Origin: an uncultured Acidimicrobiaceae bacterium
Lineage (GTDB): Bacteria > Actinomycetota > Acidimicrobiia > Acidimicrobiales > RAAP-2
Direction of reading: 5' to 3'
DNA: 64,000 bases
Assembly (NCBI GenBank): GCA_963791995.1
Contig: CAWBUQ010000016.1
Span: 39,535 to 103,534 of the forward strand
The notes beneath the pieces are model-generated. The model did no database searches. It saw only the letters and a program-made list of their open reading frames with translations, and had not been told where the DNA came from. The position numbers were made by a program, and so were the translations under genes. This document shows, piece after piece, positions 11,676 through 30,554 of the stretch (positions within the stretch are counted from its first letter, which is position 1; each line of letters starts with the position of its first letter).

Positions 11676-13790
11676 TCAGCCCGTCTGGGGGTGCGTCGGC
11701 GTCGAGCCGTCCGCGTTCACGATGTCGAAGCCGTCGGGGATGGTGAGCTGCCCCGGACCCGTGCCCGCCACGTCGGGCGTGCCGTACTGCCAGACCAGGG
11801 CCTGGGTCGTGGGATCGATGGCCGCCATGCGGTTGCGGTAGTCGTCGTTGGCCATGAAGACGCCGCTCGGGAGGCGCTCGACGAGCGAGGGCTGGTTGAG
11901 CCGGTTGATGCCGCGTCGGGGCCCGGTACTGGTAGAGGATCTGGCCCGCCCGGTTGAACTCGACGATCCCGCCCGGGTTCTCGTAGTCCGCACACAGGTA
12001 GAGGTCAGGCCCGAGCTGCTGGGGGTCAGACGGGTAGCCGATGGCGAGGTGGGTCGTCCACACCAGCGAGCCGGTCGGCGTGTACTCGCTGATGTAGGAG
12101 CCGCTGGTCTCGGACACCAAGAAGTTCCCGTCGGCGAGCGGCGTGTCGCCGTTGGGGCCGCCGATGGATGTCGGCGGGTTGTGCACGCACGACCCCGTCG
12201 TCCCGATCTGGTGCACGATCGACCCGCCCGGGCTGATGACGAGGATCCGGCAGTTGTCGGCGTCGGCCACCGTCACGTCGCCGTTCTTCAACAGGTAGGC
12301 GTCGTCGGGCTCGTGGAGGTACCCGGGTGACGAACCAGGCTGGCCGGCGTGCCCGTAGCTCCACAGCAGCTTGCCGCTCGGGTAGCGCGATCTTGACGAT
12401 GGTCTCGTTCTCCTCCTGGTTCGAGATGATGGCGGTGCCGTGGTCGACGAAGAAGGCGTCGTCGGGGAAGTAGAAGCCACCGGGTCCCGGCGGCGGCGGC
12501 ATGGACGGCGGGTTCGGATACGTCCATACGACGGTGCCGGTGTCGTCGAGCGAGCAGCAGCCGGTTGTTGCCGCGGTCGGCGATGAGCAGCTTCTCACCG
12601 AAGTACGGCGAACCCGCGCCCGGCGCACCCGCGGTGCCGAACGTGATGTTGGGCGGCAGCATCTGCACCGACGCCGCCGGCGTGGCGCCGCTCTCGCCGC
12701 CGAGCGAGCCAGGCCGTGTCCCCCACGACGGCGATGGCCGCGTTGGAGACCGGTGCCAGCAGGTGCCCGGCCACCAGCATCCGGTCCGAGTGCGGGTCGA
12801 AGGCGTAGATGGTGGCGCTGTCGGCCGACCCGCTGGTGCCGCCGGCGACGTAGATCACGCCACCGAGCGTCACGGCCGACGCCCCGAGCAGCGGCTGGGG
12901 CAGGTGGCCGATCAGCGTGATCCGTCCCGTAACGGTGTCGACCCGCTGGATCGCGTTGACCGCGCCCGCCCCCGCCGCCGACCTGCTCGCCGCCGAAGAC
13001 GTAGATGACCCGGCCGAGCGCGGCCACGGCCGGGTAGCGCACCGGCACCGGCAGCGCGCCGACGTCGCGGAACCTGCGCGCCGTCGGTCGTGGCGAGCAC
13101 CTCGGGGTCAGCGCGGGTCCCGTCGTACCCGCCGATCACGTAGGCCGTGCCCCCGATCGTGACCGCCGCGGCGTCCGAGCGCGGTTGCGGCAGCTGCCCC
13201 GCGACGCTCGCCGCCACGGACGCGCCGCCCGAGACCAGCGGTCCGAGGGGGAGGGACTGCACGGCGCCGACCGTCGTCGCCGCACCGCCGCCGAAGAGGA
13301 GCACGCGGCTGCCCACCACTGTGCCGGCCGCATCGTGGGTGGCCGTGACCAGGGAGCCGGCCGGTGCGGACGTGCCCCCCGGGACCCCGACGCTGACGAC
13401 GCTCGCGCTCGACGAGAGTGCGGATGTCAGCCCGCCCAGGGCGACGACCTTGCCCCCGCCGGGCGCAGCGACCGCCACCGCACGGCTCGTTGGTTGCGCC
13501 AACTGCCACGGGAGGAGGCCCGACTCGATCGCGGCCGCGGCCGCCGTCGCCGCGGGGGTATGCGCCGACGCCGTACGCGGGTGCCCCCGCGGGTCCGAGG
13601 TCGATGCGCCATTGGCGTCGTGGGCAGGGGGATGCCCGGCGGGAGAAGACCCGCGGCTCACGACGGCGACGACGACGCCGGCGACCACCACGATGGCGAG
13701 GCCCGCGGTGAGGACGCTGCGTCGGCGTCGCTGCTCCGTTCGGCTCCGGCGAGCGGACGTGGCCTGGCTCGGGCCGGGGGGAATGCTCAC
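11676..13790 (-). CDS. Membrane-anchored Kelch-repeat plus arylsulfotransferase-like beta-propeller protein, multiple frameshifts as assembled
   Basis: N-terminal TM VLTAGLAIVVVAGVVVAVV. Kelch-like GGKVVALGG / VLLFGGG / AYVIGGYDG / IYVFGGE / IYVAGGTSG. Then NNRLLLLDDTGTVVWTYP.., ..VSETSGSYISEYTPTGSLVWT.., ..AIDPTTQALVWQYG. Confidence 0.65.
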
Positions 13791-13892
13791 AGCAGAAGGA
13801 AACTCTGCTCGGGCGCCGGGTCTCCGGCAACCGCCTCAGGTCTAGTGCGACGACGCCTGCTCCATCCCAAGGTCGGATTGACCAGGCTGGAC

Positions 13893-15631
13893 TCAGGCAG
13901 GGTTACGGTGTGCTGGGAGGAGCCGCTTGGCGTCGCGCTCGGCGTCGAGCACGCTGTCGAGTCGGGAGAGCTCGCCGGGCGCGTCCGCCACACGGTTGTG
14001 CCGCTCTTCGGGGTCCAGCGTCAGGTTGTGCAACTCGAATACTGGTTCGGCCGCCGGCCCCAGCATGGGGTTCGCGGCGATGCCGTGCGCGGCGTGCCAG
14101 TCGTCGAGGCGCTCGTAGTAGTGGTTCAGCTTCCACAACTCGGCTGACCCGTCCGCGCCGCTCGGGAGCTCGGCGATCACCGACTCGACGCGGCGACGGG
14201 TTCGACACGGCTTCGAACGCTTCGCCGTTGAAGAGCCCGTTCTGGGTCAGGCCCCGCGAGACGTCGTCCTCGGTCATGAAGTAGATCGGTGCGGATGCCG
14301 CTTCGGCCGGCGTCGATCCCCCGATCACCGCGCTGAGGTCCCGACCGGGCAGCGGTCGCGCCTCGTCGTGGTGCACGGACACGCCCGCGCTCGCCCGCTC
14401 CACGTCGATCCCGGCCAAGCCGAGCAGGGTCGGGACGAGGTCGACGTGGCTCGTGGGGAAGGTGACCCCGCCGTCGATACGGGCGACGCCGGGTCCCTTG
14501 ACGATGAGGGGCACGCGGATCGCCTCGTCGAACGCGTTGTACCACTTCTGCACCATCCCGCCGTGGGCGCCGCCCAGGTCGCCGTGGTCCGAGGTGAACA
14601 CGATGACGGTGTCGTCCGCCATGCCCGACGCCTCGAGCGCCTCGAGCACGCGGGCGATGGCGCGGTCGACCAATGTGTGCAAGTAGTAGTAGAGGCGGCG
14701 GTACGCCAGGTCGGGCGGCTGGTCGTAGAGGATCTTCGGCCACACCGCTTTCCACTGCTCCTGACACGCGGGGCGACCCGCGAACGAGTCGCGCTGCGAG
14801 GGCGCCTCCTCGACGTCTGGCACGCTGTCGTCGGGCGGCGGCGGCATCGACAACAGGTACTCCCAGCCGAAGCCGGCGAACGCGATGTCGTGCGGGTTCA
14901 CGAAGGAGGCCACCGTCAGCCACGGCCCGTCGGCACGCGCCGCGGCCAGCTCGTCGAAGAGCTCGACCACCTGCGTGGCGAAGACGCCGTCACGCACCAC
15001 ACCCGCATCGGCGCGTGCCGCGCCGTGCGGCTCGCGCCCGATCCACCCCGCGAACCCGTAGGGATCGAGGCGGTCCGCTCTACGGTACGCGTCGACGTTC
15101 GCCGGGACAGGGTTGCCGTCCGCGTCCGACGTCATCAACGACTCGTGGGTACCCGGAATCGTCAGGTCGGCGTGCGAGATGTGCCACTTGCCGCGGTAGT
15201 GCGTGCGGTAGCCGCCGGCGCGGAACCAGTCCCCGAGGGTGGGGACCGAGTCGGGGTCGAGCCAGTGCATGCCCGAATCGGTGGCCTGCTTGGCCAGGCC
15301 GTCGGTCTGCGACGACCCGTGCAGGGACGGGTACTGCCCGGTGAACAGCGTCGCCCGGCTCGGCAGACAGGCGGTGGACCCGGCGTAGTGACGGTGGAAC
15401 TCGAGGCCTCCGCTGCGGAGGGCCTGCGCGCGCGCCGAGGTGGTCGCGACGGAAACCGGCCACCGAGTCGGACTCGTAGGGGGGCGGGTAGCGCTCCTCG
15501 TCGGTCATGATCACAAGGACGTTCGGACTGTCCACTCGGGTCTTCCACTCCTCCGGGTCGCGCTCGGGCGAATGCGGGAGGCAGAACCTAGGAGATCGCC
15601 TCCATCGTCGCACGTCACCCGGTCCGCCCAT
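13893..15631 (-). CDS. Cys-type sulfatase (formylglycine-dependent), 2 frameshifts as assembled
   Basis: NVLVIMTDEE.., FGly motif C-L-P-S-R-ATLFTG (15355-15369), ..VIVFTSDHGDLGGAHG.. A possible longer Tat-like start (MGLRRVAARRRF, 15787) needs further frame corrections. Confidence 0.8.
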
Positions 15632-16197
15632 TCGGCCCTGGCCCAGGTCGGGCCGGTCGCCGGCGGCAACAGGGAATGCCCGCCGGTCGTCCGTCCCGCC
15701 TGCGACGACAACACAGACACAACCTGGTCCTGCACGCGCCCTCTCGGTCCGAAAACGACGGCGCGCCGCCACGCGCCGCAGGCCCATCGTGACCCGTTCT
15801 CCCAGCCCAGAGTGCATCTTTGGCGACTGTCTCGACCGTCTCCTGACCGTCCAGGGCAGACCCCTCACCGGGGCCGCCAGGGCGAGACATGCACTACACA
15901 CGCATGGGACAGGGAATCCCTAGCGTGTGCAGGCGATGAACCAGGCGGACCGCACTGTCGCGGGAACGACGAGGGCACTGCCCCGGCACGTCCCCACGGC
16001 GCGTCGCGCCTGCACCCTGGTCCCGCCCACCCCCTCCCTCGCCCCCCACCGGCGAGGCCGGCCGTGACCGACATCGCCTCCGACCCGGCCGCCGCCGCGG
16101 CAGCCGAGCTGCAGAACGCAGCAGCCTCGACGGCACCGACACCGCCCAGGGCGACACGTCCACGGCGGGCGCCGGCGGCGCGATCCAGAAGCGGGCG

Positions 16198-17591
16198 ATG
16201 CGCGGCGCCTCGTTCCTCTTCGGACGCGAGGCCATCGGATCGGTCGTGCGCCTCATCGGCGTGATCATCACCGTCCGCATGATCGGCCCGAGCAACTACG
16301 GCGTGTTCACCGCGGCGGCCGCCTACGTCGCGGTCATCGTGACCATCTGCCAGATGGGGTCAGAGGTCTTCCTCATCCGTGCCCACGAACAGCCCACCAA
16401 GCGGCTGAACAACGAGATCTTCACGTTGCTGCTGGTGACCTCGGTCGCATTGAGCGTCGTCGCGCTCGGCTTGACGTTCGTGCTGGCGCCTCTCATCAAG
16501 CCCGCGGGCACCCTCGTGCCGCTACGCGTGTTGCTCCTCTGCGTGCCGATCAACGCGCTGTGGGCACCAGCCCAGGCGCACATCGAGCGTGCCTTCGACT
16601 ACAAGAAGATGGGCATCCTCGAGCTCGGTGGCGACATCGTCCTCTACGCCGTCGCCGTGCCGTTGGCCCTCTTGCACTTCGGCGCCTGGTCGCTCGTCGC
16701 CGGCTATTTCGCCTGGCAGACCTTCCTGCTCGTCGGAAGCCTGCTCCTGTCGGGCCTGCGGCCGCGCCTGGCGTGGTCGACCAAGACGGCCAAGGACGTC
16801 ATCCGCCACGGCACCTCGTATTCGACCTCCATGCTGTTCGTCAACCTCGTCTTCGTGGTCCCCCCGATCGTCGTCGGGACGTTCGTCGGTGCGGCCGGCG
16901 TCGGCTACGTGTCGTTCGGGCGCAACCTCGTCAACACGGTCGGGTTCGCCAAGCGCGCCGCGTACCGCCTGGGCATCGTCACCATGGCCCAGATCAACCG
17001 CGACGACCCCAAGCTGTTCCGTCAGGGCCTCGAGCGCGGCGCCTTCTTGCTCACGCTGGCGCTGGGCGTGTCCCTTCGCCATCTTCGGACTGGGCGCGCA
17101 CTGGATCGTCCCCGCCCTCTTCGGACACGAATGGGCCGCCGCACTGCCGATCTTCTGCCTCCTCGCGCTGGGCTGGGTGCTCAACTCCATCGGGTCGGTC
17201 GAAGCCTCCCTCTTCTATGCGCTCGGGAAGAACACGGTGGTGGCGGTCGGACAGGGCCTCCAGGTGCTCTTCTTGTTCGTGCTCTCGATCCCGCTGGTCA
17301 AGTACTGGGGCGTCAACGGCTTCGGCGTCGCCTCGCTGCTCGCCATGGTTGCCTTCGTCTACCCGGATCGGACAGCTGCGCAAGCTCGCCACCTACTCCA
17401 TGGCCGCGACGATCGCGGTCTCGCTGATCCTCGCCCCCTCCATGTTCCTGCCGATCTTCCCGCCCTGGATCGGCCTGGTCCTCTTGCTGCCCTGGGTGCT
17501 GCTCTTCGTGGTCAAGTCGCTCCGGGAGCAGATCTTCGGGGTGCTCGACTCCCTCCGCTCGTCACTCCGGCGCAAGGTCGCAGTGGCATGA
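16198..17591 (+). CDS. Wzx/MOP-superfamily polysaccharide flippase (2 internal frameshifts as assembled)
   Basis: MRGASFLFGREAIGSVVRLIGVIITVRMIGPSNYGVF.. and about 12 predicted TM segments, pieced from ORFs 16198-, 16589- and 16560-17591. Possible upstream GTG at 16064. Confidence 0.75.
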
Positions 17592-18082
17592 CAGACGTCG
17601 TGACACCCCCTTCCTGCCGGGTCGGCGTGGACCTCGCCACCGTCGCCGACGTCGAGTCGGCCCTGGCTGCGCACGGGGAGCGCTACCTCCGGCGGGTCTT
17701 CACCCCCCATGAGCTGGACTGTTGTCGCAGGTCCGGCGGCTGGTCGGCCGAATCGCTCGCCGCCCGCTTCGCCGCCAAGGAGGCCACCATCAAGGTGCTC
17801 CAGCCCAGGGCCAACCAACCCGATTGGAACAGTATGGAAGTGCGGCGCCGCTCTGACGGCTCCTGCACCATGACCCTTTCGCGCACTGCGGCCGAGATGG
17901 CCGAGGCGGCCGGCATCACCGCGCTGTCGCTCAGCATGAGCCACGAGGGCGAGCAGGCCGCGGCGGTTGTGTTCGCCTTGTGCGGCCCGCCGCCCGGGAC
18001 CGCCCTCAGCCTCTCCGGCGGCGTCACGCCGGGACGAATCGAATTCGCAGCATGGAAAGAAAGGAAACCAGCAGATGCCTGA
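17588..18082 (+). CDS. 4'-phosphopantetheinyl transferase, AcpS type
   Basis: ATG overlaps the flippase stop (ATGA). VGVDLATVADVE..RVFTPHE..LAARFAAKEATIKVL..SLSMSHEGEQAAAVV is the holo-ACP synthase pattern. Confidence 0.8.
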   Translation: MTDVVTPPSCRVGVDLATVADVESALAAHGERYLRRVFTPHELDCCRRSGGWSAESLAARFAAKEATIKVLQPRANQPDWNSMEVRRRSDGSCTMTLSRTAAEMAEAAGITALSLSMSHEGEQAAAVVFALCGPPPGTALSLSGGVTPGRIEFAAWKERKPADA

Positions 18083-18347
18083 GCCCGCGCACCCCAACGA
18101 GGCGCGAGTCCGTTCCACGTTGGTCGAGCACGCCCGCCTGCCCGTGGACGTCGAGACGCTCCAGGTCTATGACGACTTGTTTCAAGCCGGGATGACCTCG
18201 CACGCCAGCGTCAACGTGATGCTTGCCCTCGAAGAGGAGTTCGACATCGAATTCCCCGAGGAGATGCTCCAGAAGTCGACCTTCGAGTCGATCGAAGCGA
18301 TCTGCTCGTCGATCGCCAGCCTCAGCACGATTGGAGACCCAGTATGA
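18075..18347 (+). CDS. Small carrier protein (ACP/PCP-like, 90 aa)
   Basis: ATG 18075 overlaps the PPTase end by 8 nt. DDLFQAGMTSHASVNVMLALEEEFDIEFPEE has a carrier-protein helix II with candidate Ppant Ser42 (18198-18200). Confidence 0.75.
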   Translation: MPEPAHPNEARVRSTLVEHARLPVDVETLQVYDDLFQAGMTSHASVNVMLALEEEFDIEFPEEMLQKSTFESIEAICSSIASLSTIGDPV

Positions 18348-19506
18348 GCTCGACAAAACTGCACGGCCACGAGGCCGCGGCGCGAGCGGCGACGATCGCC
18401 GCCGAGGTGACGGCGCCAGCGGCCGACGACGTCGACACCCGCTCTCGATTCCCCTTCGAGACCTTCGAGGCGCTCCAGGCCGACGGCCTCCTGGCCACGC
18501 TGGTCCCGATCGAGTTCGGGGGCATCGGCGCCACGCTGTCCGAGGCGGGTGACACCGTGACCGAGCTCGCCAAGGCCTGCTCCTCGAGCGGGATGATCCT
18601 GGCCATGCACCACCTCCAGGTGGCCTGCGTGGTCCGCCACGGGCAGAACGAAGCACTCCGGCAATTCCTGGCTGAGATCGCCAACGAGCAGTTGCTGCTG
18701 GCCTCGGCCACCACCGAGGTGGGCGTAGGCGGCAACACGCGCGAGAGCATCTGCGCCATTCAGCCGCACGAGCAGGGTTTCGAGCTGCAAAAGGCGGCGG
18801 GCGTCATCTCCTACGGCTCCTACGCCGACGCGGTGCTGGCGACAGCTCGGCGCAACGAGGACGCGCCGGCCAGCGACCAGGTGCTGGTCGTGTGTCGCGC
18901 CCCCGGCCTCAGCCTCGAGCAGACGGGCCAGTGGAACACGCTCGGCATGCGCGGCACCTGCAGCCCCGGCTTCGCACTGCGGGCCACGGGGTCCATGGAC
19001 ATGATCCTGCCGGTCGGCTTCGGCGAGGTCTCCGAGCGGACCATGCTCCCGGTGTCGCACATCCTGTGGGCCTGTGTCTGGCAGCGGCATCGCGTCGGCG
19101 GCCGTCGAGCGCGCCCGATCCATGGTCCGGGCCGAAGCCCGCAAGAACGTCGACGTGCTGCCCAAGGGCGCCCCGGCGCTGGCCGAGCTCCTGCTCCAGC
19201 AGCGCCAGCTCGAGGCCTTGGTCCAGGACGCCCTCGACGAATTCGACCGGCTCGATGCCTCGCCGCGTGCCGGCGTGCCCATGTCGTTCACCATCGCCAT
19301 GAACACGCTGAAGGTCGCGGCATCGCGCCTCGTCGTCGAGATCGTCTCGGGCGCTCTCATGCTCTGCGGAATGGCCGGCTACTCCCACGGCACGCCGTAC
19401 AGCCTGGGACGCCAGCTCCGCGACTCCTACAGCGCCGACGGTGATGATCAACAACACGCGGATCCTCGCCGACAACGCCCACATGCTCACGATCTCAAAG
19501 GGGTAG
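18344..19506 (+). CDS. Acyl-CoA dehydrogenase-family flavoprotein (2 frameshifts as assembled)
   Basis: ATGA overlap with the carrier gene. ..FPFETFEALQADGLL..ELAKACSSSGMILAMHH..ATTEVGVGGN..NTLGMRGTCSPGF..GYSHGTPYSLGRQLRDSYSA.. Confidence 0.8.
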
Positions 19507-19509
19507 ACG

Positions 19510-20412
19510 ATGACTGACACCACTGCTTTCGGCTCGGCTCTCGTCGAAAAGGGCCTGCTGTTCCCGACCGGGATCCTCGGCGTGCTGGGCCGCTCCCAGC
19601 AGTACGCGGACATCGCGGCCGGGCTCAACTCGATCGTCGACGCCTGGGGCGTCGAGCTTGGCGCGACGGGCATCCAGTTCCCGCCCATCGTGAACAAGGC
19701 GACGTTCGAGGAGACCAACTACGTCCAGTCCTTCCCCGACCTCATGGGGGCGATCCACGTCTTCACCGGCGGCAACAAGGAGCACGCGGAGCTCCTGCGG
19801 CGTTCGGAGTCGGGCAAGGACTGGTCGGACATGCTCGAGATGGCCGACGTGTTCCTGGCCTCTGCGGCCTGCCACCCGGTGTACCCGATGTGCACGGGCA
19901 CGCTGCCTGAGTCCGGGCGCTACTTCAACGTGTCGAGCTACTGCTTCCGTCACGAGCCGAGCGAGGACCCGGCGCGCATGCAGTCGTTCCAGATGCACGA
20001 GATCGTCTTCGTCGGCGACCCCGATGCGGCGCAGCAGCACCGCGACGCCGGGCTCGAGGTCGGCATCGACATCCTGCGCCGGCTCGGGCTCGAGATGGAC
20101 GTGATCGAAGCCAACGATCCCTTCTTCGGCCGCCTGGGCACCGCCATGGCCAAGGGCCAGAAGGAAGAGATCCTGAAACTCGAGGGCACGACGCCCATCG
20201 GGAGCCCCGACCACCCCGTGGCCATCATTTCGGGCAACTGCCACCGCGACCACTTCGGCACCCCGTTCTCGATCGAGACGGGGGATGGTGCGGTGGCCCA
20301 CAGCGCCTGTGTCGCCTTCGGCGTCGACCGGATCACGCTCGCCCTCTTGTACCATCACGGGCTCGACGTGAGCAGCTGGCCGGCCGAGGTCAAGGAGGCA
20401 TTGCGCTTGTGA
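19510..20412 (+). CDS. Truncated class-II aaRS homologue: amino acid:[carrier-protein] ligase type (SerRS-like catalytic core only)
   Basis: 300 aa with no tRNA-binding domain. Motif 2 YCFRHEPS (19945-19956), motif 3 ACVAFGVDRITLAL. Candidate Zn ligands C121 / E164 / C267, as in methanogen-type SerRS. Confidence 0.75.
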   Translation: MTDTTAFGSALVEKGLLFPTGILGVLGRSQQYADIAAGLNSIVDAWGVELGATGIQFPPIVNKATFEETNYVQSFPDLMGAIHVFTGGNKEHAELLRRSESGKDWSDMLEMADVFLASAACHPVYPMCTGTLPESGRYFNVSSYCFRHEPSEDPARMQSFQMHEIVFVGDPDAAQQHRDAGLEVGIDILRRLGLEMDVIEANDPFFGRLGTAMAKGQKEEILKLEGTTPIGSPDHPVAIISGNCHRDHFGTPFSIETGDGAVAHSACVAFGVDRITLALLYHHGLDVSSWPAEVKEALRL

Positions 20413-21407
20413 GGGTCCAGGTGCTCAATCTGGATCCGAGCACGTACGTCTCCCATCTCGTCCACGGCGACGAGCGGATGTGGCTCGAGTCGAACTGCGC
20501 GGCCGACCTCTGGATCGAGGTCCTGCACGGCGTCGGCCTCGAACCGCTCGCTGCCATGGGGTTCTTGCTCAGCGCCGGGTTCGACGGCGAGCAGTGGCGC
20601 ATGTTCAAGTTCTCCATGGAGGACGTGTGGCGGCTCTACGGGATCGACTGCTACGAGGTGAACCTCTGGCGCACCCTCCCGAACCACCTCGAGGACCACA
20701 TCGCCCTCGGCCGGATGATCACCATCGACGTCGACGCCTGGTGGCTACCCGACACCGAGGGGCTCACCTACAAGACCGCCCACCAGAAGACGACGGTGGC
20801 GGTCCAGATGATCGACGTGGAGGCCGGCCGCATCGGCTACTTCCACAACGGCGGCTACTACGAGCTCGGCGGCGAGGAGTACGAGCGGCTGATCGCTGAC
20901 GAGGCCGTGGCGGTCATCCCGCCCTACGCCGAGGCGATCGACCTCGAGCACCTCCGACGCGACGAGGACCTGCGGCCGCTGGCCCTCGAGCTCGCCCGTG
21001 AGCATTTCGCCCGCCGGCCCACGGCCAACCCGGTCAGCGAGATGCGCAAGCGTCTGGAGGGCGACCTCCCCTGGCTCGTCAGGGACGGGATCGACACATT
21101 CCACCGCTACGCCTTCGGGTCGATCCGCCAGTGCGGATCCAACGCGGAGCTGGCCGTGGACTACGTGCGCTGGCTGGCCGCCGGCCCGGGCGCTCCCGAG
21201 ACGAGCACCGCGTCCGAGCAGAGCTCCAGGAACGGCGACGCCGCCGCCGAGGCCTTTCTCACCGTCTCCAAGAAGGCGAAGGCGCTGGAGTTCCAACTCG
21301 CCCGCGTGCTGCGGGGCAAGCAGATCGCACTGGCGGAGGTGATGTCGGAGATGGAGTCCGCCTGGGAGGATGCCATCGAGGCCACAGCCGCCTTGCTCTA
21401 TGGCTGA
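20409..21407 (+). CDS. Conserved protein of unknown function (resembles DUF1839; family name from memory only)
   Basis: Intact 332-aa ORF. GTGA overlap with the ligase stop and an 8-nt overlap with the next gene. N-terminal ..WLESNCAADLWIEVLHG.. has a Cys/His pair. Confidence 0.6.
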   Translation: MRVQVLNLDPSTYVSHLVHGDERMWLESNCAADLWIEVLHGVGLEPLAAMGFLLSAGFDGEQWRMFKFSMEDVWRLYGIDCYEVNLWRTLPNHLEDHIALGRMITIDVDAWWLPDTEGLTYKTAHQKTTVAVQMIDVEAGRIGYFHNGGYYELGGEEYERLIADEAVAVIPPYAEAIDLEHLRRDEDLRPLALELAREHFARRPTANPVSEMRKRLEGDLPWLVRDGIDTFHRYAFGSIRQCGSNAELAVDYVRWLAAGPGAPETSTASEQSSRNGDAAAEAFLTVSKKAKALEFQLARVLRGKQIALAEVMSEMESAWEDAIEATAALLYG

Positions 21408-23892
21408 CCTGCTCGAGCACGCGGCCTGGTCGTGTGCTCGCACATCGCCGGGCCTCCTCGACGGGGCGGACCCTTCTGCGCTCGACGCGCTCGACTGGAT
21501 GCCCGCGTCCGTCCCGGGCACTGCGGCCGAGGCCCTCGCCGCCGTCGGCGCCCCCGACGTGGCGGACCATGACTACGACGCGGAGGACTGGTGGTTCCGC
21601 TGCCGCTTCCCCGGTGGGCCCGGGACCTGGCAGCTGCAGCTGCACGGCATCGCCACCCTGGCCGACGTCTGGGTCAACGGGTCCCAGGTGGCCCGGACCG
21701 AGAACATGTTCGTGCGCACCTCGGTCACGCTCGAGGGGCTGGGGGACGACAACGAGCTCGTCATCCGCTGCGAAGCGCTGTCCCCCGCCCTGGCGGTCAA
21801 ACGGCCCCGGCCGCGTTGGCGGACCACCCAGGTCGAGAACCAGGCGCTGCGCTGGTTCCGCACCACCCTCTTGGGCCGGATCCCCGGCTGGGCGCACACC
21901 CCCCGCACCGTCGGGCCGTGGCGGCCCGTTGCCGTCACCCAGGACAACGGCCCGCTGAACGGTGCCCTCGACACCTTCGTCCATGCGTCGTGCGATGGCG
22001 AGAGCGGCCGCGTCGACGTCGCCCTGCGCTTCGCGGGCGTGCCCGGCTGGGCCGAGGAGTCCGGCGACGGGGCGCCCGTGCTGGTCTGCCTGGGCCGCGA
22101 GGCCACCTTCGAGGTGGAGCACGAGGGCTCCGATGTGACGCTGCGCGCGTCGCTGCCCGTCACCGGGTTCGAACGGTGGTGGCCCCATACCCACGGCTCC
22201 CAGCCGCTCTACGAAGTCGGGCTGCGATTGGGCGGCGTGGTCCATCCCCTCGGGCGCGTCGGGTTCCGCACGGTGGAGGTCGACCGCTCCGACGGCGGCT
22301 TCACCTTCGTCGTCAACGGCGTCCCGATCTTCGTCAGAGGCGCGAATTGGTTCCCGCCCGATCCCGTCAGCCGGCACGCCGGCGACGACGAGGTGCGGCG
22401 GCGCCTGGGGCTCGCCCGCGAGGCCAACCTCAACATGGTGCGCATCCCGGGCACCACGGCCTACGCCGACCGATCGGTCCTCGACGCCTGCGACGAGCTC
22501 GGCCTGTTGCTCTGGCACGACTGCATGTTCGCCTTCATGGACTACCCCGACGACGAGGGGTTCGTCGCCGGCGTCCGCCAGGAGTTGCGCCAGGCCTTCG
22601 CCGACCTGTCCGGGCATCCGGCGCTGGCCATCGTGTGCGGGAACCAAGAAGTCGCCGAGATCGCCGCCATGAACGGTGGCGGCCAGACCGGCTTCGAGTC
22701 CGAGCTCTTCGACACCGTCATCCCCGCGCTGACCGCCGCGTTGCTGCCCGGCGTCGAGTTCGTGGCGTCGAACCCGGGGGGCGGCGACCCCGTCTACCGG
22801 CCCGACACCGGCGTGAGCCAGTACTTCGGTCTCGGGGGCTACCTGCGCCCGCTCAACGCGCTGCGCCGTGACGACGTGCGCTTCGCGGCGGAGTGCCTCT
22901 GTTACGCCACACCACCCGAACCAGAGGCCGTCACCCGGCTGGGCGGCGCCAACATCGCCGTGCACGACCCCACGTGGAAGGTGGGCATCCACCACGACCC
23001 GGGCCGGTCCTGGGACATGGACGACGTCCGCGCCTTCTACATGCGGGAGGTCTTCGGGGTCGACCCGCTGTGGGAGCGCTACTCCGATGCCGAGCGCGCG
23101 CTCGATCTGGGCCGGGCCACCAACGCCTTCTTGATGCAGTACGTCTTCACCGAGTGGCGCTGCAACGAGCGGGCCGGTGGCGGCCTGGTGCTCGGCCTCC
23201 ACGACCTGGCGCCGGGGGCGGGCTGGGGCCTATTGGACGTGACGGGCCAACCCAAGGCACCGTGGTACGCCATGCGACGAGTCTCGGAGCCGATCTGCGT
23301 CCTCCTCGTCGACGAAGGCCTGAACGGGCTGTGCGCCCACGTGTGCAACGACTCGGCAGAGGCCTTCAGCGGTGAGCTCGCCGTCGATCTCTACACCAAC
23401 GGCGAGACCCTGAGCACGCAGGCCGTCCGCCCGGTGAGCGTCAAGGCCCGGGGCGCCGAGATCGTCAATCTTTACAACCTCTTCGACGAATTCACCGACC
23501 TCAACTACGCCTACCGCTTCGGGCCGCCCACATATGACGTCATCGCGGTGACCCTCAAGGACACCGCGGCTTCGGTGGTCTCCGACTCCGTCCTGCTGCC
23601 TCTCGGCCAGGCCCGTCCACTCGAGGCCGACATCGGCCTGCGTGCCGTCGTGCACTCGGACGACTCGACCGGGGGTCCGCCCCAGGTGCACGTCACGACC
23701 CGTCGCTTCGCCCAGTGGGTCTCGGTGAACGCGCCGGGCTTCCGACCGTCGGACTCCTGGTTCCATCTGCCGCCCGGGTCCGAGCGCGTCGTCACGCTGC
23801 ACGACTGCGAACCGTCGCGCCCCGCGCGGGGCCGGGTGCGGGCGCTCAACTCCACGGTGGCGGCGGTGATACGACCCGAGGAGGACTCGTGA
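21400..23892 (+). CDS. GH2-family beta-mannosidase-like protein, no signal peptide
   Basis: Intact 830 aa. ..GIATLADVWVNG..VRGANWFP.., LLLWHDCMFAFMDYP, ALAIVCGNQEVAE (acid/base region) are GH2 beta-mannosidase/exo-glucosaminidase-like patterns. Confidence 0.8.
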   Translation: MADLLEHAAWSCARTSPGLLDGADPSALDALDWMPASVPGTAAEALAAVGAPDVADHDYDAEDWWFRCRFPGGPGTWQLQLHGIATLADVWVNGSQVARTENMFVRTSVTLEGLGDDNELVIRCEALSPALAVKRPRPRWRTTQVENQALRWFRTTLLGRIPGWAHTPRTVGPWRPVAVTQDNGPLNGALDTFVHASCDGESGRVDVALRFAGVPGWAEESGDGAPVLVCLGREATFEVEHEGSDVTLRASLPVTGFERWWPHTHGSQPLYEVGLRLGGVVHPLGRVGFRTVEVDRSDGGFTFVVNGVPIFVRGANWFPPDPVSRHAGDDEVRRRLGLAREANLNMVRIPGTTAYADRSVLDACDELGLLLWHDCMFAFMDYPDDEGFVAGVRQELRQAFADLSGHPALAIVCGNQEVAEIAAMNGGGQTGFESELFDTVIPALTAALLPGVEFVASNPGGGDPVYRPDTGVSQYFGLGGYLRPLNALRRDDVRFAAECLCYATPPEPEAVTRLGGANIAVHDPTWKVGIHHDPGRSWDMDDVRAFYMREVFGVDPLWERYSDAERALDLGRATNAFLMQYVFTEWRCNERAGGGLVLGLHDLAPGAGWGLLDVTGQPKAPWYAMRRVSEPICVLLVDEGLNGLCAHVCNDSAEAFSGELAVDLYTNGETLSTQAVRPVSVKARGAEIVNLYNLFDEFTDLNYAYRFGPPTYDVIAVTLKDTAASVVSDSVLLPLGQARPLEADIGLRAVVHSDDSTGGPPQVHVTTRRFAQWVSVNAPGFRPSDSWFHLPPGSERVVTLHDCEPSRPARGRVRALNSTVAAVIRPEEDS

Positions 23893-25707
23893 TGACCGGT
23901 GCGCCCGTCCCGACGGACCCCGCCACTGCGGCTGCTCCTGCCACCCCGACCACCCCGGCCAGCGTGCGGGCGACGCCGGTCTACTTCGGTCCACAGGAAA
24001 GGCCGCTCTTCGGCTGGGTCCACCAACCGGCCGACGGGCTCTCCCGCGGCACGGTCATCATGTGCGAGCCCCTGCTGCGCGAGTACATCAGTGCGCACTA
24101 CACCTTTCGTGTCCTGGCCGAGGCCCTGGCCGCTCGAGGCATCACGGCCATCCGCTTCGACTACGACGGCACCGGCGACTCGGCGGGCGACGACTCCGAT
24201 CCGGGTCGGATCGACGCCGCGGTGGCCTCCATCGGGCACGCCGTCGATCTGGCGCGGAGCCTGGGCCCGACTCGGCTCGCCCTCATCGGCATGCGCCTCG
24301 GCGCGTTGCTGGCGTCCAAGGCCGTCGAACACGACACGTCGATCTCCGAGCTCGTGCTCTGGGATCCCTGCGGCTCGGGACGCGACTTCCTGCGGGCGCA
24401 GTCAGCCCTCTTCCGGATGCGCTACGGGAAGGCAAAACGAGAAGACGGCAGCACGGAAGTTCCCGGTTTCGTGCTCTCGACCCAGACCGTCGAAGAACTG
24501 TCGGCGCTGGCGGCACCCACCTCGCTCCCTTCGATCGAGCACGCGCTGATCCTCGATCGCTCCGACCGCCCCGCGTCAGGGACCTTCGGCGTCGACGAGA
24601 GCCGGATCGAACGCCTCGAGGCGACCGGTCAAGCCGGGCTCATGGACATCGAGCCTTTCTTCAACACAGTGCCGTCCACGGCGATCGAGAGCATCGCCGA
24701 CTGGTTCGACGGGGTCTTTCCGACCGAGCGTGCCGCGCGAGTCGCAACCGGCAACCGACGCCATTACGGTGCGAGCCAAAGACGGATCCCGGGTCAGCGA
24801 GCGCGTCGTCACGCTCGGGCCGCACGACTTGTTCGGGATCCTGGCGACCGGCGATGCCGAGCCGACCGGCCCACCGGTTCTGTTCCTCAACAGCGGGAGG
24901 GATCCCCACACGGGCCCCAACCGGATGTGGGTCGACCTCAGCCGGGAATGGGCCGCGTTGGGCTTCCCCTGTTACCGCTTCGACCTCAGTGGCCTCGGGG
25001 ACAGTCCGGTCCGCCCCGGGCAGGTACCCAACCGCGTCCGGGTGGCCGAGGCGTTCGACGACGTGGTCGATGCCGTGGCCGACGTGGTGGGTGGCCCGTC
25101 GAACGGCCGGCCCGACGGCGCGTCGGACGGCGCGTCGGACGGCGAGGTCGCACCCGTCGTGCTGGCCGGGCTGTGCGCCGGTGCCTACCAGGTGCTCGAG
25201 AGTGCGATCGATCTGCGCCCGCGGTCGGTCCTCTCGGTCAACCCGATCCTGCGGTTCCAGCCGTGGGAGGTCGATCTGGGCGGGCCGATGGACCCGCGAC
25301 GACGGTTCTGCAAGCCCGCCGGCAGCCTGCGCCAGACCTACCGGGCGCTGCCGTCGTGGAAGATCCTGCGACTGGCCCGCGCTCGCTACCTCACCTTCGC
25401 CGGCAGGCTCTCACGTCAGCGCACATCGATCGACTGGCTCGAGGAGGCAGCCGCGCAGGGGACTGACATTCTGTGCATCTGTGGAGAAGAAGAGGCGGTG
25501 CCCTTCTTCGAAGGCGTGTCGGCCGATCGCACGACGGTGGAAGACGAGCGCTGCCGGCTCCAGGTGATCCCTGGTCTCGACCATGGGCTCATGATGGCCG
25601 GGGACCGCGTGCAGGTCGCCTCCCTCCTCACCGCGCACATCTCATCGCTGTTCCCTCACGGCGCGACAACGGCTCGGACCGACACGTCGCAGCCGTCGAA
25701 CTCGTAG
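23889..25707 (+). CDS. Tandem (two-domain) alpha/beta-hydrolase-fold protein, 1 frameshift near 24760
   Basis: GTGA overlap with the GH2 stop. Domain 1: RFDYDGTGDSAGD.. with box G-M-R-L-G (24288-24302, no nucleophile). Domain 2: RFDLSGLGDSP.. with box G-L-C-A-G (25168-25182). Confidence 0.7.
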
Positions 25708-25756
25708 TCGCGCCCGCGATCGGAATGCTCAGACACCGAAGCGCGTTGTTCTGTAG

Positions 25757-26326
25757 GTGGACTACCGGCTCCTCCTGATTTCGGGCAGCCTGCGTGAAGG
25801 CTCGACCAATACGGCCGCGCTGCGATCGATCCAAGCGGCGCCGCCGCGTGGCGTGCACGCCTCCTTCTACGACGAGCTGGCCGGCCTGCCCGCCTTCAAC
25901 CCCGATCTCGACACCGGCGCACCGCCACCCGAGGTCGACCGCCTGCGAACCCGCATCCATCGTTCGGACGCGCTCGTGTTCTCGACACCAGAATACGCAG
26001 GAGCCCTCCCGGGGTCGTTGAAGAACCTGCTCGATTGGACCATCGGCGATGAAGACGCCGACTCCGTCTACGAGAAACCAGTTGCATGGCTGAACGCCTC
26101 GCCACGAGGTGCCGCGGGCGCGCACGCGGAGCTGCGAACCGTCCTCGGGTACGCGGACGCCACCATCGTCGAAGCGGCGTGCATGACAGTGCCGGTGACG
26201 CAGGCCATGCTGGGCACCGACGGCCTGGTGAAGGATCCCGCCGCCCTCGACCAGATGCACACGATGCTGCAGCGCCTGACGGCGCGACTGGCATCAGTCT
26301 CGGGCTCGGGGTCGCCTCGGCCCTAA
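25757..26326 (+). CDS. NAD(P)H-dependent FMN reductase family protein
   Basis: LLLISGSLREGSTNTA..ALVFSTPEYAGALPGSLKNLLDW is the FMN_red pattern. It starts 49 nt after the hydrolase gene on the same strand. Confidence 0.8.
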   Translation: MDYRLLLISGSLREGSTNTAALRSIQAAPPRGVHASFYDELAGLPAFNPDLDTGAPPPEVDRLRTRIHRSDALVFSTPEYAGALPGSLKNLLDWTIGDEDADSVYEKPVAWLNASPRGAAGAHAELRTVLGYADATIVEAACMTVPVTQAMLGTDGLVKDPAALDQMHTMLQRLTARLASVSGSGSPRP

Positions 26327-26934
26327 CTCGTGGCGAGCGTGCCGGGATCGCCGGGATGACCGAGCTCGCGGCCATCGAGCGCACTGAGCACACCGACAAC
26401 ACCGAGCACACCGAGGTGCTCGAGGCCCACATAGCCGGCCCACCCGTCCGTCAACTGGCCGGACTGCAGCCGCCGATGAAACTCCTCCGCTGACACGAGG
26501 ATCGCCTCACAGAACTCCTCCGAGGGGTCCAGTTCCGGTTCGCGTACCCTCCGGCAGTCCATGGCGACCGCCGCCCATTTGCGTCGCGTGATGTTGGCGC
26601 CCTGCCAGGTATGGCCGATCACCGTCAGGTCGCCCACGTATCCGGTCTCTTCTGCCAATTCCCGACGCGCCGCTTCGAGCGGTGACTCGCCGTCACCGAG
26701 CTCCCCTCCGGGCAATTCGTCGAGCATGCAGGCGGGACCCGGACGGAACTGGCGCGCCAGGATCATCTGTCCGTCCTCGGTGACGGCGACCACCGCGACG
26801 GCATCGCGCGTCGTCATGACGTCCCAGTCGACGTCGGCGCCGTCGGGCATGCGGTAGGTCTTGGTCACGACCTCGATCCATCCGTTCGGACCACGTCGCT
26901 GCCCGATCAATTTCCAGGGTTGCGCTTCGGACAT
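26323..26934 (-). CDS. NUDIX hydrolase
   Basis: Nudix box GGELGDGESPLEAARRELAEETGY. Start taken at MSEAQPWKL (26934). Confidence 0.8.
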   Translation of the reverse strand: MSEAQPWKLIGQRRGPNGWIEVVTKTYRMPDGADVDWDVMTTRDAVAVVAVTEDGQMILARQFRPGPACMLDELPGGELGDGESPLEAARRELAEETGYVGDLTVIGHTWQGANITRRKWAAVAMDCRRVREPELDPSEEFCEAILVSAEEFHRRLQSGQLTDGWAGYVGLEHLGVLGVVGVLSALDGRELGHPGDPGTLATS

Positions 26935-27137
26935 CTGACCCTTTCGCGAGGTACTGCACGGCAGACCATCAGTCTCCTGGGTGCCGCCGGACATGACAAA
27001 ACGAGCGAGGCTTTCGCTCGAGCGGCGACACGACCACGACGCCGTCGTCCGCCTCGCCCTGCGGGAACGAAGCAGCGCGCGGCCGCGTGCGGGCGTGTGC
27101 GAGGATGTCGGGGTCCGGCGATGCAGAGGGGGCTGGA

Positions 27138-28865
27138 ATGGCATCGATTCGATTCGTTCGCGTGCTGTGCAGTGTCGCGCTGCTGGCGGGCCTGTTCACC
27201 GTTGTGACCGCTGCCGTGACGCCTGTTCTCGCCTCGGGCGGGACCCCCGTCCCTGGCGCTCCGAACTGCCCGATGTTCCCCGCCGACAACGTGTGGAACA
27301 CGCCCATCACCAACTTGCCGGTCGATTCGCATTCCGCCGCGTGGCTGGCCAGCATGGACGCCGGCTCGACCAACCTGCACCCCGACTTCGGGCCGTCGGG
27401 TGATCCTGCAAATCCCTATGGCATGCCGTACACGGTTGTCGCACCTAACCAACCCTTCGTCAGCGTGGCGTTCCAGTACGGGAGCGAGAGCGACCCCGGG
27501 CCGTACCCGCTCGGGGCGAACACGCCGATCGAAGGAGGGCAGAGTTCGACCGGTGATCGCCACGCCCTCATGGTGGACCCGAGCACCTGCACGCTCTACG
27601 AGCTCTACGACGCGCACTACAACGCCTCGGGATCGACGGCCGGGTCTGGCGCCATCTGGAACCTCAACTCCAACGCCCTGCGCCCGGCGGGGTGGACCTC
27701 TGCTGACGCGGCGGGTCTGCCCATCCTGCCCGGACTGGTCCGCTACGACGAGGTCGAGTCGGGCAGCATCACGCACGCCATCAGGATGACCGCGGAGACG
27801 ACCGACACCAGCTACGTCTGGCCGGCGCGGCACGAGGCGGGATCGAGCTCGAACTCCAACCTGCCGCCGATGGGAGCCCGATTCCGGCTGAAGGCCAGCT
27901 TCAACATCAGCGGGTTCTCGCCCCAGGCCCAAGTGGTGCTCCGGGCGATGCAGCAGTACGGACTGATCCTCGCCGACAACGGCAGCAACTGGTACTTCGG
28001 CGGTACCGCCGACCCGGCATGGCCACAATCGCTCGTCGACGAGTTGAAGGAGGTCCCGGCCAGCGAGTTCGAGGCGGTCGACGAATCGTCGCTCATGGTG
28101 AACCCGGACTCGGGCCAGGCTCGCAGCTTCCCTGGCCCGGTGACGGGCATCGCAGCACCGCCGTCGGGATCGGGGTACTGGCTCTCGGACGCCGAGGGTG
28201 CGGTCTCGGCGCACAACGTGGCGAGTGACGGCTCCATGGCGGGTACGCCGTTGAATGCGCCCATCGCCCACATCGTCTCGACTCCTGACGGCGGTGGTTA
28301 CTGGCTCGTGGCGGCCGACGGCGGCACGTTCGCTTTCGGCGATGCGGGATTCTTCGGTTCCATGGGCGGCACACATCTCAATGCGCCCGTCGTGAACATG
28401 GCCCCGACCCCGGACGGCCGTGGCTATTGGCTGGTGGCCAAAGACGGCGGCGTCTTCGCCTTTGGCGATGCGCCTTATTTCGGGTCCATGGGTGGCAGGC
28501 ACCTCAATGCGCCGATCGTGGGCATCGCCGCAGACCCACAGACGGGCGGATATTGGCTGGTGGCGTCCGACGGCGGGATCTTCGCCTACAACGCACCCTT
28601 CTATGGATCGACTGGCAACATCCACCTCCAGCAACCGGTGAACGGCATGACCACGGCATCCGGTGGGGGCGGGTACTGGATGGTGGCGTCTGACGGCGGG
28701 ATCTTCGCCTTCGGCCTCGCTCCATTCTGGGGCAGCACCGGGGCTATCCGCCTCAACGCGCCCGTGATGGGCATGGCCGAGGACGTGGCATCAGGGGGCT
28801 ACTGGATGGTCGGCTCCGACGGGGGCGTCTTCTCCTTCAACGCGCCGTTTTACGGTTCCGACTGA
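27138..28865 (+). CDS. Secreted protein: conserved N-terminal domain of unknown function plus six C-terminal repeats of about 40 aa
   Basis: GAGGGGG before ATG 27138. Signal peptide MASIRFVRVLCSVALLAGLFTVVTAAV. The ORF is intact. Confidence 0.8.
   Translation: MASIRFVRVLCSVALLAGLFTVVTAAVTPVLASGGTPVPGAPNCPMFPADNVWNTPITNLPVDSHSAAWLASMDAGSTNLHPDFGPSGDPANPYGMPYTVVAPNQPFVSVAFQYGSESDPGPYPLGANTPIEGGQSSTGDRHALMVDPSTCTLYELYDAHYNASGSTAGSGAIWNLNSNALRPAGWTSADAAGLPILPGLVRYDEVESGSITHAIRMTAETTDTSYVWPARHEAGSSSNSNLPPMGARFRLKASFNISGFSPQAQVVLRAMQQYGLILADNGSNWYFGGTADPAWPQSLVDELKEVPASEFEAVDESSLMVNPDSGQARSFPGPVTGIAAPPSGSGYWLSDAEGAVSAHNVASDGSMAGTPLNAPIAHIVSTPDGGGYWLVAADGGTFAFGDAGFFGSMGGTHLNAPVVNMAPTPDGRGYWLVAKDGGVFAFGDAPYFGSMGGRHLNAPIVGIAADPQTGGYWLVASDGGIFAYNAPFYGSTGNIHLQQPVNGMTTASGGGGYWMVASDGGIFAFGLAPFWGSTGAIRLNAPVMGMAEDVASGGYWMVGSDGGVFSFNAPFYGSD
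28173..28862 (+). repeat. Six tandem coding repeats (39-42 aa): GYW[LM]V..DGG.F.FG.A.F.GS.G...LNAP..G.A
   Basis: Repeat starts are read from the translation (GYWLSDAEG.., GYWLVAADGG.., GYWLVAKDGG.., GYWLVASDGG.., GYWMVASDGG.., GYWMVGSDGG..). A beta-propeller-blade periodicity is inferred. Confidence 0.7.
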
Positions 28866-29591: not shown

Positions 29592-29663
29592 AGGGGTGTA
29601 GTCCAGCGGAACGGACAGCCGGCTCCAACCCGGCGGACCTGGGTTCTACTCCTGCCACCCCTG
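29592..29663 (+). tRNA. tRNA-Trp(CCA), non-canonical T arm
   Basis: Acceptor AGGGGTG/CACCCCT, D arm GTCC/GGAC, anticodon stem GCCGG/CCGGC, loop CTCCAAC. T stem weak (CTGGG/CCTGC), T loop TTCTACT. Confidence 0.6.
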
Positions 29664-29789
29664 CAGGGCGAAGCCATGTCCTTTTTGCCTAAATGGGCAA
29701 TTGAACCACCGTACATTGACAACTAAATAGTACCCAAGATTGGGGATCGGAGCCACGTCTATTGGCGCGGCGACACCGACCGATCCCGC

Positions 29790-29873: not shown

Positions 29874-29877
29874 CCCT

Positions 29878-30036: not shown

Positions 30037-30037
30037 G

Positions 30038-30111: not shown

Positions 30112-30199
30112 CTCGGCCGGAGTCATCCGGTCACACGCGTGGCTTCCACCCACGAGTAATGGGGGCGGTACCCATTGACCCCTCCATTCACGCAACCGC

Positions 30200-30551: not shown

Positions 30552-30554
30552 CGA

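Follow-up and report, generated by a model that had tools for sequence, protein, structure and literature searches.

The 64,000-nucleotide stretch of DNA analysed here (the window), which comes from an uncultured Acidimicrobiaceae bacterium, has a G+C content of about 70% and finds its closest relatives in metagenome-assembled genomes (MAGs) of Acidimicrobiales, contains an operon of eight head-to-tail genes, one of which encodes a homologue of aminoacyl-tRNA synthetases (aaRS). The best-supported reading of this operon, to which we give a probability of roughly 0.45, is thiotemplated aminoacyl transfer coupled to polysaccharide export, i.e. aminoacylation of a glycan, because the corresponding gene blocks of relatives sit in Wzx/Wzy loci next to cyclic di-GMP (c-di-GMP) enzymes. 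All coordinates refer to the window, in which nine genes of the + strand lie within 16198-26326. The first eight of them encode, in this order, a Wzx-type flippase, an AcpS-type 4′-phosphopantetheinyl transferase (PPTase), an aminoacyl carrier protein (CP), a flavoprotein of the acyl-CoA dehydrogenase (ACAD) fold, an amino acid:CP ligase, a DUF1839 protein, a glycosidase of glycoside hydrolase family 2 (GH2) and a tandem alpha/beta-hydrolase. Profile searches with all eight proteins bear out the gene identities proposed in a first-pass annotation, which had been made from the sequence alone.

The eight genes are a real operon. ATGA overlaps join the flippase gene to the PPTase gene (17588-17591) and the CP gene to the ACAD-like gene (18344-18347), GTGA overlaps join the ligase gene to the DUF1839 gene (20409-20412) and the GH2 gene to the hydrolase gene (23889-23892), and overlaps of 8 nt are formed by ATG 18075 and TGA 18080-18082 between the PPTase and CP genes and by ATG 21400 and TGA 21405-21407 between the DUF1839 and GH2 genes. 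The ACAD-like and ligase genes are separated by a gap of 3 nt (TAG at 19504-19506, ACG, ATG at 19510). All seven junctions lie where the first-pass annotation had placed them. The same geometry (4, 8, 4, gap 3, 4, 8, 4) is repeated in the two closest relatives, L001 and L002 (ligases 83% identical), which argues that the tight coupling of the genes is conserved and not a product of chance.

The ligase gene (19510..20412, +) encodes 300 amino acids that represent the catalytic core of a class II aaRS alone. Its predicted function as an amino acid:CP ligase, which had been proposed from the start, holds. The protein passes the NF005479 model (amino acid--[ACP] ligase; cut-off 357) at 377.5 bits, the alignment extending over positions 19-316 of a profile of 318, and matches Bll0957 (PDB entry 3MEY) at 7.4e-67 with approx. 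45% identity. Cys121, Glu164 and Cys267 align with the Zn ligands of Bll0957, which we take to be C131, E176 and C279, mapped via the offset of a 20-residue tag, and the triad is invariant in 13 relatives. Moreover, the gene of the cognate CP is adjacent. That the 19510-20412 product might instead be a genuine tRNA-charging synthetase, as weak matches to models of the class II core and of SerRS would have it, was checked and is practically out of the question: the protein aligns only to positions ~306-504 of the methanogen-type SerRS model, has no tRNA-binding domain and scores 59 bits on that model, the cut-off being 611, whereas the ligase model is passed. A true glycine--tRNA ligase is encoded elsewhere in the window (50969-52237, -; NF003211, 511.7 bits against a cut-off of 312), so that the aaRS-like ligase is distinct from the organism's housekeeping enzyme of class II. 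Studied homologues of the ligase reportedly load glycine or alanine, and Bll0957, solved with its CP, is said to be among those with demonstrated loading. Loading of an amino acid onto a CP by homologues of the ligase is given as shown in a 2022 review (PMC9437257).

The CP (18075..18347, +; 90 aa) belongs to the type that serves such ligases. It scores 98.5 bits on NF005480 (cut-off 72), and its best matches in the PDB are the aminoacyl CPs 4H2W_C (3.7e-15) and Atu2571 (1.2e-14), with acyl carrier proteins (ACPs) of fatty acid synthases at approx. 4e-3. Ser42 (18198-18200), the attachment site of the phosphopantetheine arm, is kept in 90% or more of 80 sequences. Directly upstream, the PPTase gene (17588..18082, +) encodes a protein that matches PF01648 at 1e-15 and TIGR00556 with 77.6 bits against a cut-off of 45.35.

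The survey of gene neighbourhoods called for by the first-pass annotation revealed that the gene order is conserved in relatives and that its core extends across several phyla. Scanning a single genome for each species yielded at least 591 loci with a relative of the ligase; the window proteins were searched by tblastn against the 80 loci kept, and patterns were counted in the 57 loci with enough flank. All 57 have the CP, 44 the hydrolase, 43 DUF1839 and 42 GH2. DUF1839 is accompanied by GH2 in 40 loci and stands without it in 2, and no locus has GH2 without DUF1839. A PPTase gene lies beside the CP gene in 28 of the 57, in Actinomycetota, Gemmatimonadales (L042) and Myxococcales (L048), and in none of the Pseudomonadota loci. 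The core CP-ACAD-ligase-DUF1839-GH2(-hydrolase) is present in Acidimicrobiales, Rhodococcus, Mycobacterium, Williamsia and Micrococcales, in Rhizobium, Azospirillum, Phyllobacterium, Methylovirgula and on megaplasmids of the Burkholderia group, as well as in Gemmatimonadales, Myxococcales and Planctomycetales. It thus spans Actinomycetota, Alpha- and Betaproteobacteria, Gemmatimonadota, Myxococcota and Planctomycetota. The Acidimicrobiales variant adds the Wzx flippase and a dedicated PPTase to this core. The full eight-gene order is found in L001, L002, L004, L013 and L026, and six further loci have a short form consisting of flippase, PPTase, CP, ligase and hydrolase genes, without the ACAD-like, DUF1839 and GH2 genes.

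The ACAD-like flavoprotein (18344..19506, +; two frame corrections near 19084 and 19436) is an optional module, present in 47 of the 57 loci. Both ACAD domains, PF02771 and PF00441, are there, on two frame segments. Among solved proteins, it is closest to KijD3 (4e-14), an N-oxygenase of amino sugars, and to monooxygenases of the DszC type, with true ACADs at the same level. At the place equated by eye with the Y-E-G-T of medium-chain acyl-CoA dehydrogenase (MCAD) type enzymes, the protein reads I-N-N-T. The second Asn is conserved among 68 sequences, as is an 'M..N.RI' motif; the residue equated with Glu is not conserved, and the protein is predicted to have Asn (19450-19452) in place of the MCAD-type catalytic Glu. 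Acting on an aminoacyl thioester, it could oxidise the amine, dehydrogenate a Cα-N or Cα-Cβ bond, or hydroxylate its substrate. From neighbouring genes annotated as ACP and ACAD, a 2023 classification paper suggested a lipid or acyl-chain module, i.e. processing of fatty acids or phospholipids. We consider this very improbable, as the loading enzyme is an amino-acid ligase and not an acyl-ACP synthetase, the CP is of the aminoacyl carrier type, the ACAD-like protein appears to be devoid of the MCAD-type catalytic base and GH2 is the invariable partner of DUF1839.

DUF1839 is a candidate for transferring the tethered amino acid. The 332-aa protein (20409..21407, +) had been listed as unknown; the open reading frame (ORF) is as described, but its product is readily identified as DUF1839 (PF08893, 1.7e-95). 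Cys30 (20496-20498), Asp109, Asp115, His125 and His146 are invariant in 37 DUF1839 sequences. The AlphaFold (AF2) model, with a predicted local distance difference test (pLDDT) score of 93.8, consists of an alpha/beta domain (residues 1-180) and a helical part (189-331), and its helix 30-41 starts at Cys30. A Foldseek search of the PDB with this model returned AziU3/U2 (2e-6) and CtaG (1.4e-5 to 1.7e-4, probability 1.00, template modelling (TM) score 0.48-0.53) and nothing else below an E-value of 0.07. Sequence and profile searches against the PDB gave no match, and a relaxed Pfam scan (E up to 10) gave PF08893 alone and neither BtrH_N nor DUF6005. CtaG, composed of two domains (residues 1-181 and 188-309), is a papain-like ligase whose own Cys accepts an acyl group from one CP for transfer to an amine; its homologues BtrH, which is part of the pathway of the aminoglycoside butirosin, and AsbE move CP-bound acyl groups to free acceptors (PMC12865890). 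DUF1839 had already been assigned to the superfamily of papain-like proteins, its modelled C(T/S)H site being shifted and a remote tie leading to DUF6005, the family of the AsbE context (PMC10318531). By its fold and genomic context, DUF1839 is predicted to be a CP-dependent transacylase. A solitary DUF1839 gene lies on the conjugative plasmid p3 of Rhizobium sp. NZLR1 (L085 9968-10954), unaccompanied by ligase, CP or GH2 genes; its neighbours, close to the tra region, are a ParB-domain gene on one side and hypothetical genes on the other. This suggests that the fold has a second use, unrelated to the first.

The GH2 protein (21400..23892, +), described in the first-pass annotation as cytoplasmic and GH2-like, proved to be a beta-mannosidase homologue. 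Its best matches in the PDB are 5N6U (2.1e-46, residues 32-703) and BtMan2A (1e-34), it has the five-domain architecture, and inspection by eye revealed no N-terminal hydrophobic signal. Both catalytic Glu residues are present: Glu417 (acid/base, GNQE) and Glu498 (nucleophile, AAEC) align with the catalytic residues of the solved enzymes and reach a conservation of at least 90% among 52 sequences. The protein is predicted to be catalytically competent.

The last gene of the operon (23889..25707, +; one frame correction at ~24722-24760) encodes a tandem alpha/beta-hydrolase with Pfam matches to Hydrolase_4 and Abhydrolase_6. The Ser nucleophile of the G-x-S-x-G motif is in neither half, which read G-x-R-x-G and G-x-C-x-G, respectively. 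In the N half, Arg136 occupies the nucleophile elbow (GMRLG), aligns with the Ser of solved lipases and is at least 90% conserved. In the C half, Cys149 (GLCAG, 25174-25176) is invariant and a conserved His (25582-25584) lies near the C-terminus. The pattern of residues predicts a dead N half and a C half with a Cys nucleophile. In a relative with an intact gene, the N half matches hydr2_PEP (4e-21) and the C half hydr1_PEP (1e-17); the scores of this protein on TIGR03100 and TIGR03101, 64.4 and 75.6 bits, are both below the cut-offs of 168.45 and 202.75. A fold search returned generic lipases, feruloyl esterases and one thioesterase and was not discriminating. Reading the broken hydrolase as two real genes was rejected, since the frame of the N half continues for approx. 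240 codons at a low G+C content of third codon positions (GC3) and relatives have a single fused protein of 545-616 aa.

Taken together, these proteins can be arranged into a pathway. The PPTase would turn the CP into its holo form on Ser42, as its family membership and the conserved Ser suggest. The ligase would activate a small amino acid with ATP at its Zn site and thioesterify it to the CP, where the ACAD-fold flavoprotein might oxidise the tethered aminoacyl group. DUF1839 would take the acyl group on Cys30 and hand it to the amine or hydroxyl group of a sugar acceptor handled by its obligate partner GH2; fold and co-variation of the two proteins point in this direction. The Cys-His C domain of the tandem hydrolase may be a second acceptor of the acyl group from the CP. 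In the short-form loci, the hydrolase would be the only offloading candidate of the conserved block, next to unannotated ORFs that are also present there. Finally, the Wzx-type flippase would move the decorated, lipid-linked unit across the membrane, as its context in relatives suggests.

The assignment of the flippase (16198..17591, +; two frame corrections near 17070 and 17370, and a start that may lie upstream of 16198), proposed in the first-pass annotation, is borne out by polysaccharide-transporter domains. Its first frame segment matches Polysacc_synt_3 (PF13440; 2e-30, 106.5 bits) and Polysacc_synt (PF01943; 4e-14, 53.1 bits), both above the cut-off; it stays below the cut-off of the NCBIfam equivalog for flippases of the multidrug/oligosaccharidyl-lipid/polysaccharide (MOP) superfamily, to which Wzx-type (MOP/PST) proteins belong. 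The gene was found in 13 of 83 fetched loci, all of them in MAGs labelled Acidimicrobiales or Acidimicrobiaceae, or only Actinomycetota or Actinomycetes.

The inference of the first-pass annotation that the partners of the ligase act on a lipid-linked or exported glycan stood in part. On the positive side, the block of relatives directly follows genes for Wzy polymerases, a priming phosphoglycosyl transferase (PGT; Bac_transf) and glycosyltransferases (GTs). In L089, WecG/GT4, GT2, Bac_transf, two unknown and Wzy_C genes precede those of Wzx, PPTase, CP, ACAD, ligase and hydrolase; in L003, GT4, GT28-like, GT2, GT4, Bac_transf and Wzy_C genes are followed by PPTase, CP, ACAD, ligase, DUF1839, GH2 and hydrolase genes, with GH26 downstream. 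In L090, GGDEF and Wzy_C genes are followed by one for a Wzx that carries a faint GGDEF tail, and then by PPTase, CP, ligase and hydrolase genes. The 119 flanking ORFs of 32 Actinomycetota loci include GT4 and GGDEF (8 each), Wzy_C (5), GH26 (4) and epimerases, GT2 and DegT (3 each). We judge these counts to be far above those of a random gene sample, which is our own estimate and not a measured background. On the negative side, the flippase is confined to the 13 loci mentioned above, and the window has no homologues of the Wzy, PGT and GT4 proteins of those loci.

Proteins of c-di-GMP metabolism adjoin the cassette in several lineages: in Rhodococcus opacus, a GAF-GGDEF-EAL protein is encoded directly upstream (L032 5981-7822), and further examples are found in Acidimicrobiaceae (L090 1-672 and 5296-9322) and Mycetohabitans (L086 20289-20969). 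On the megaplasmid of Mycetohabitans rhizoxinica, a fungal endosymbiont (L086), a 413-aa 'acyltransferase' gene (6067-7308) precedes the six-gene cassette, and a gene of the lipoteichoic acid (LTA) synthase family (18212-20224) follows it within 3 kb, another envelope-related context. In the window itself, a gene for a cellulose-synthase-like processive GT2 (33117-35174, -; TIGR03030 CelA, 386 bits against a cut-off of 699) abuts a GH43 gene (31461-33131, +) 5-9 kb downstream of the operon. This pair may be a synthase-type glucan locus.

Several points weigh against glycan aminoacylation. No product or acceptor has been established for any amino acid:CP ligase system (PMC9437257). The likeness of DUF1839 to CtaG is structural alone (TM approx. 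0.5 at 8-13% identity), and the C(T/S)H triad of DUF1839 is described as non-canonical (PMC10318531). It is not obvious what a cytoplasmic glycoside hydrolase would do in a decoration pathway. The hydrolase could serve proofreading rather than transfer; as a mere proofreading thioesterase, however, it would make the short form a futile cycle. Most cassettes, including all those of Proteobacteria, have no flippase, and Proteobacterial flanks are mostly unrelated with little glycan enrichment. When the Wzy, PGT, GT, GH26 and TIG proteins of relatives were searched by tblastn against the 64-kb window, no match was obtained. Three genes of the operon are interrupted by frame breaks in this assembly. 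In Phyllobacterium, a drug-type exporter of the multidrug resistance (MDR) family within the major facilitator superfamily (MFS) and a LuxR regulator are encoded directly upstream of the cassette.

The last of these points leads to the main rival, in which the cassette makes a small diffusible metabolite, e.g. an aminoacyl- or oxidised-aminoacyl-glycoside, by a thiotemplated route independent of non-ribosomal peptide synthetases (NRPS), with the MOP or MFS protein as its exporter. CtaG, AsbE and BtrH, the fold relatives of DUF1839, all act in secondary-metabolite pathways, and the cassette is often borne on plasmids or megaplasmids (rhizobia, Azospirillum, Burkholderia, Mycetohabitans). In Azospirillum, the six genes stand alone, without glycan genes nearby. 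Owing to the CtaG-class transacylases of secondary metabolism and the MFS context, a metabolite is a serious contender, even though we hold it to be unlikely: the six genes are unaccompanied by scaffold-building enzymes, the block of Acidimicrobiales is inserted co-directionally among Wzy, PGT and GT genes, the recurrent GGDEF/EAL neighbours indicate regulation of a matrix, and the transporter matches MOP families of the polysaccharide type, not MATE. Glycan aminoacylation therefore remains the reading we prefer for this operon. In its general form, it would mean that amino acid:CP ligase cassettes represent a widespread cytoplasmic, Dlt-independent aminoacylation of lipid-linked repeat units prior to flipping by Wzx, with a small amino acid, either as such or in oxidised form, as the substituent and two cysteine transacylases, DUF1839 and the Cys half of the hydrolase, as the transfer enzymes. 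We put this generalisation forward tentatively, with more doubt than we attach to the reading of the operon itself.

The first-pass annotation had treated the flippase, ACAD-like and hydrolase genes as intact. Each of them is broken, and five frame corrections, which it did not mention, are needed to read them through. The breaks were located by a GC3 frame plot, by the frames of tblastn high-scoring segment pairs (HSPs) and by blastn gaps relative to L001, L002 and L004. The flippase gene runs through three frames (16198 to ~17070, ~17070 to ~17370 and ~17370 to 17591), and comparison with the intact 512-aa protein of L001 gave three collinear HSPs in three frames. The ACAD-like gene likewise occupies three frames (18344 to ~19084, then to ~19436 and to 19506). 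The hydrolase gene occupies two, from 23889 to ~24722-24760 and on to 25707, the switch being in the inter-domain linker. Four of the five breaks (~17070, ~17370, ~19084 and ~19436) correspond to one extra base in the window relative to L001, L002 and L004. The PPTase, CP, ligase, DUF1839 and GH2 genes are intact. An independent contig of 3.1 kb (L088), which came from an exact-sequence look-up with the ligase, is 99.65% identical to window positions 19438-22540 without gaps and begins 2 nt beyond the last ACAD break; exact-sequence look-ups with DUF1839, CP and PPTase gave no record of an independent assembly.

Most likely, the frame breaks are assembly indels rather than signs of decay. Essential dnaG is equally affected, which points to indel errors throughout the assembly: its parts lie in three frames, and it continues in frame into a complete sigma-70 gene (41879-45778, -), with Zn ribbon and DNAG_N at 44203-45285, Toprim at 43668-44450, and DnaB_bind in the long ORF that also holds sigma-70 regions 1.1, 2, 3 and 4. 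The genes flanking the operon are broken as well, those for the sulfatase and Kelch-repeat proteins even more densely. Past each break, GC3 stays near 0.9 and the similarity to relatives at 66-88%. Furthermore, L001 and L002, contigs that share approx. 99% identity and come from two samples in one series of long-contig (0.3-1.1 Mb) metagenome assemblies, differ in the gene that is broken, which is the flippase gene in L002 and the hydrolase gene in L001. Decay of the operon in this organism, with five true mutations and a non-functional system, is accordingly improbable, although the breaks are single-base or short indels that lie outside long homopolymers.

The surroundings of the operon share little with the conserved cassette. 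Upstream, a divergent intergenic region (15536..16197) separates the flippase gene from a sulfatase gene on the - strand. It presumably contains the promoter and shows no coding signal in the GC3 plot. An Rfam scan of this leader, which covered c-di-GMP and glycine riboswitches, found no family; one sub-threshold match to a small RNA is located inside the sulfatase gene, and a scan for consensus promoters and terminators was uninformative. The sulfatase gene (two frame breaks) and a large Kelch-repeat gene (at least five) occupy 11679-15535 (-). Their divergent arrangement is common to the closest relatives L001 and L002 only, and neither gene is conserved beyond the nearest relatives.

Downstream, an NADPH-dependent FMN reductase (25757..26326, +; PF03358, 4e-27) is encoded 49 nt past the hydrolase stop at 25707, a distance the first-pass annotation had given correctly. 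The gene adjoins the operon but lies outside the conserved system, and tblastn detected no homologue near the cassette in the 83 fetched loci. A role as the reductase partner of a two-component monooxygenase was rejected on the same grounds, its absence from the cassettes of relatives. A convergent NUDIX-domain gene (26323-27144, -) overlaps the final 4 nt of the reductase gene and is followed by an ORF of 592 aa (27087-28865, +) with no match in Pfam or NCBIfam. Further downstream, in a region of lower G+C content (0.60-0.66), 12 tRNA genes are packed into 1.5 kb (29592-31058, +) in the order Trp, Tyr, Ala, Lys, a malformed one, Thr, Phe, Val, Ile, Val, His and Met; the fifth (30200-30271) has a malformed anticodon loop.

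Parts of the system were known before. The ligase-CP pair and the six-gene cassette are already known objects: the NCBI pipeline names all six core genes, and the GH2-DUF1839-ligase-ACAD-ACP neighbourhood is in the supplement of a 2023 paper (PMC10318531). The core is therefore less new than the first-pass annotation had supposed. The PPTase and Wzx-flippase variant within Wzx/Wzy loci comes from the present analysis, as do the CtaG-like fold of DUF1839 and the Arg/Cys tandem hydrolase. The biological function served by amino acid:CP ligases that have been solved and biochemically characterised is still given as unknown (PMC9437257). The locus and its relatives offer a concrete, testable hypothesis for this role, which has been missing since 2010, and cultured carriers of the cassette exist in Rhodococcus opacus, Azospirillum, Rhizobium and Mycetohabitans. 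If true, the hypothesis would give this family of aaRS paralogues its first biological role, add a novel mechanism by which glycans are decorated, put the aaRS catalytic core to a new use and identify an enzymatic route for amino-acid substituents on bacterial glycans.

The known systems closest to the operon include the ligase-CP pairs of Bradyrhizobium and Agrobacterium (Bll0957-Bsr0959 and Atu2573-Atu2571; 3MEY, 4H2S-4H2Y, 2JQ4). Their ligases are approx. 45% identical to the one described here, share its curated model and have the same Zn triad, their CPs are of the same type, and an ACAD gene lies between the CP and ligase genes, as in the window. Since bll0958, the neighbour of the studied bll0957, is such an ACAD gene, the studied ligases sit in the same cassette. 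In contrast to these pairs, the operon also has a dedicated PPTase and a Wzx-type flippase.

For the tandem hydrolase, the best models of both halves are hydrolases 1 and 2 of exosortase A (PEP-CTERM) systems, which reportedly always occur together, near an AMP-forming ligase. Unlike this pair, the two halves are fused here, score far below the cut-offs and have Arg and Cys at the nucleophile positions, and no exosortase context was seen for the cassette.

With CtaG, BtrH and AsbE, DUF1839 shares the bipartite fold, a Cys with which the first helix of its papain-like domain begins and a gene position beside those of a CP and a loading enzyme. It differs from them in that no sequence similarity is detectable, C(T/S)H is the reported triad instead of Cys-His-Asp, loading occurs via an aaRS homologue rather than an ATP-grasp enzyme or AMP-ligase, and the partner protein is a GH2. 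The logic of the operon may be likened to that of butirosin biosynthesis (BtrI/BtrJ/BtrK/BtrO/BtrV/BtrH), which is said to involve a CP-tethered amino acid and a flavoenzyme with a separate flavin reductase, and in which a papain-like transacylase reportedly moves the acyl group to an amino sugar. Loading enzyme and flavoenzyme belong to other families there, and the flavin reductase of the window is not conserved.

DltABCD provides a functional analogy, in which an ATP-dependent ligase, a small amino acid and a dedicated CP of approx. 80-90 aa serve the decoration of an envelope polymer. None of its components is homologous. The ligase of the operon is an aaRS core and not a DltA-type adenylating enzyme, the CP reaches only 19.8 bits with the model of DltC, whose cut-off is 68, and the eight operon genes, all assigned to other families, include neither an MBOAT protein (DltB) nor DltD. 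Compared with DltABCD, transfer of the amino acid would take place in the cytoplasm, before the decorated unit is flipped.

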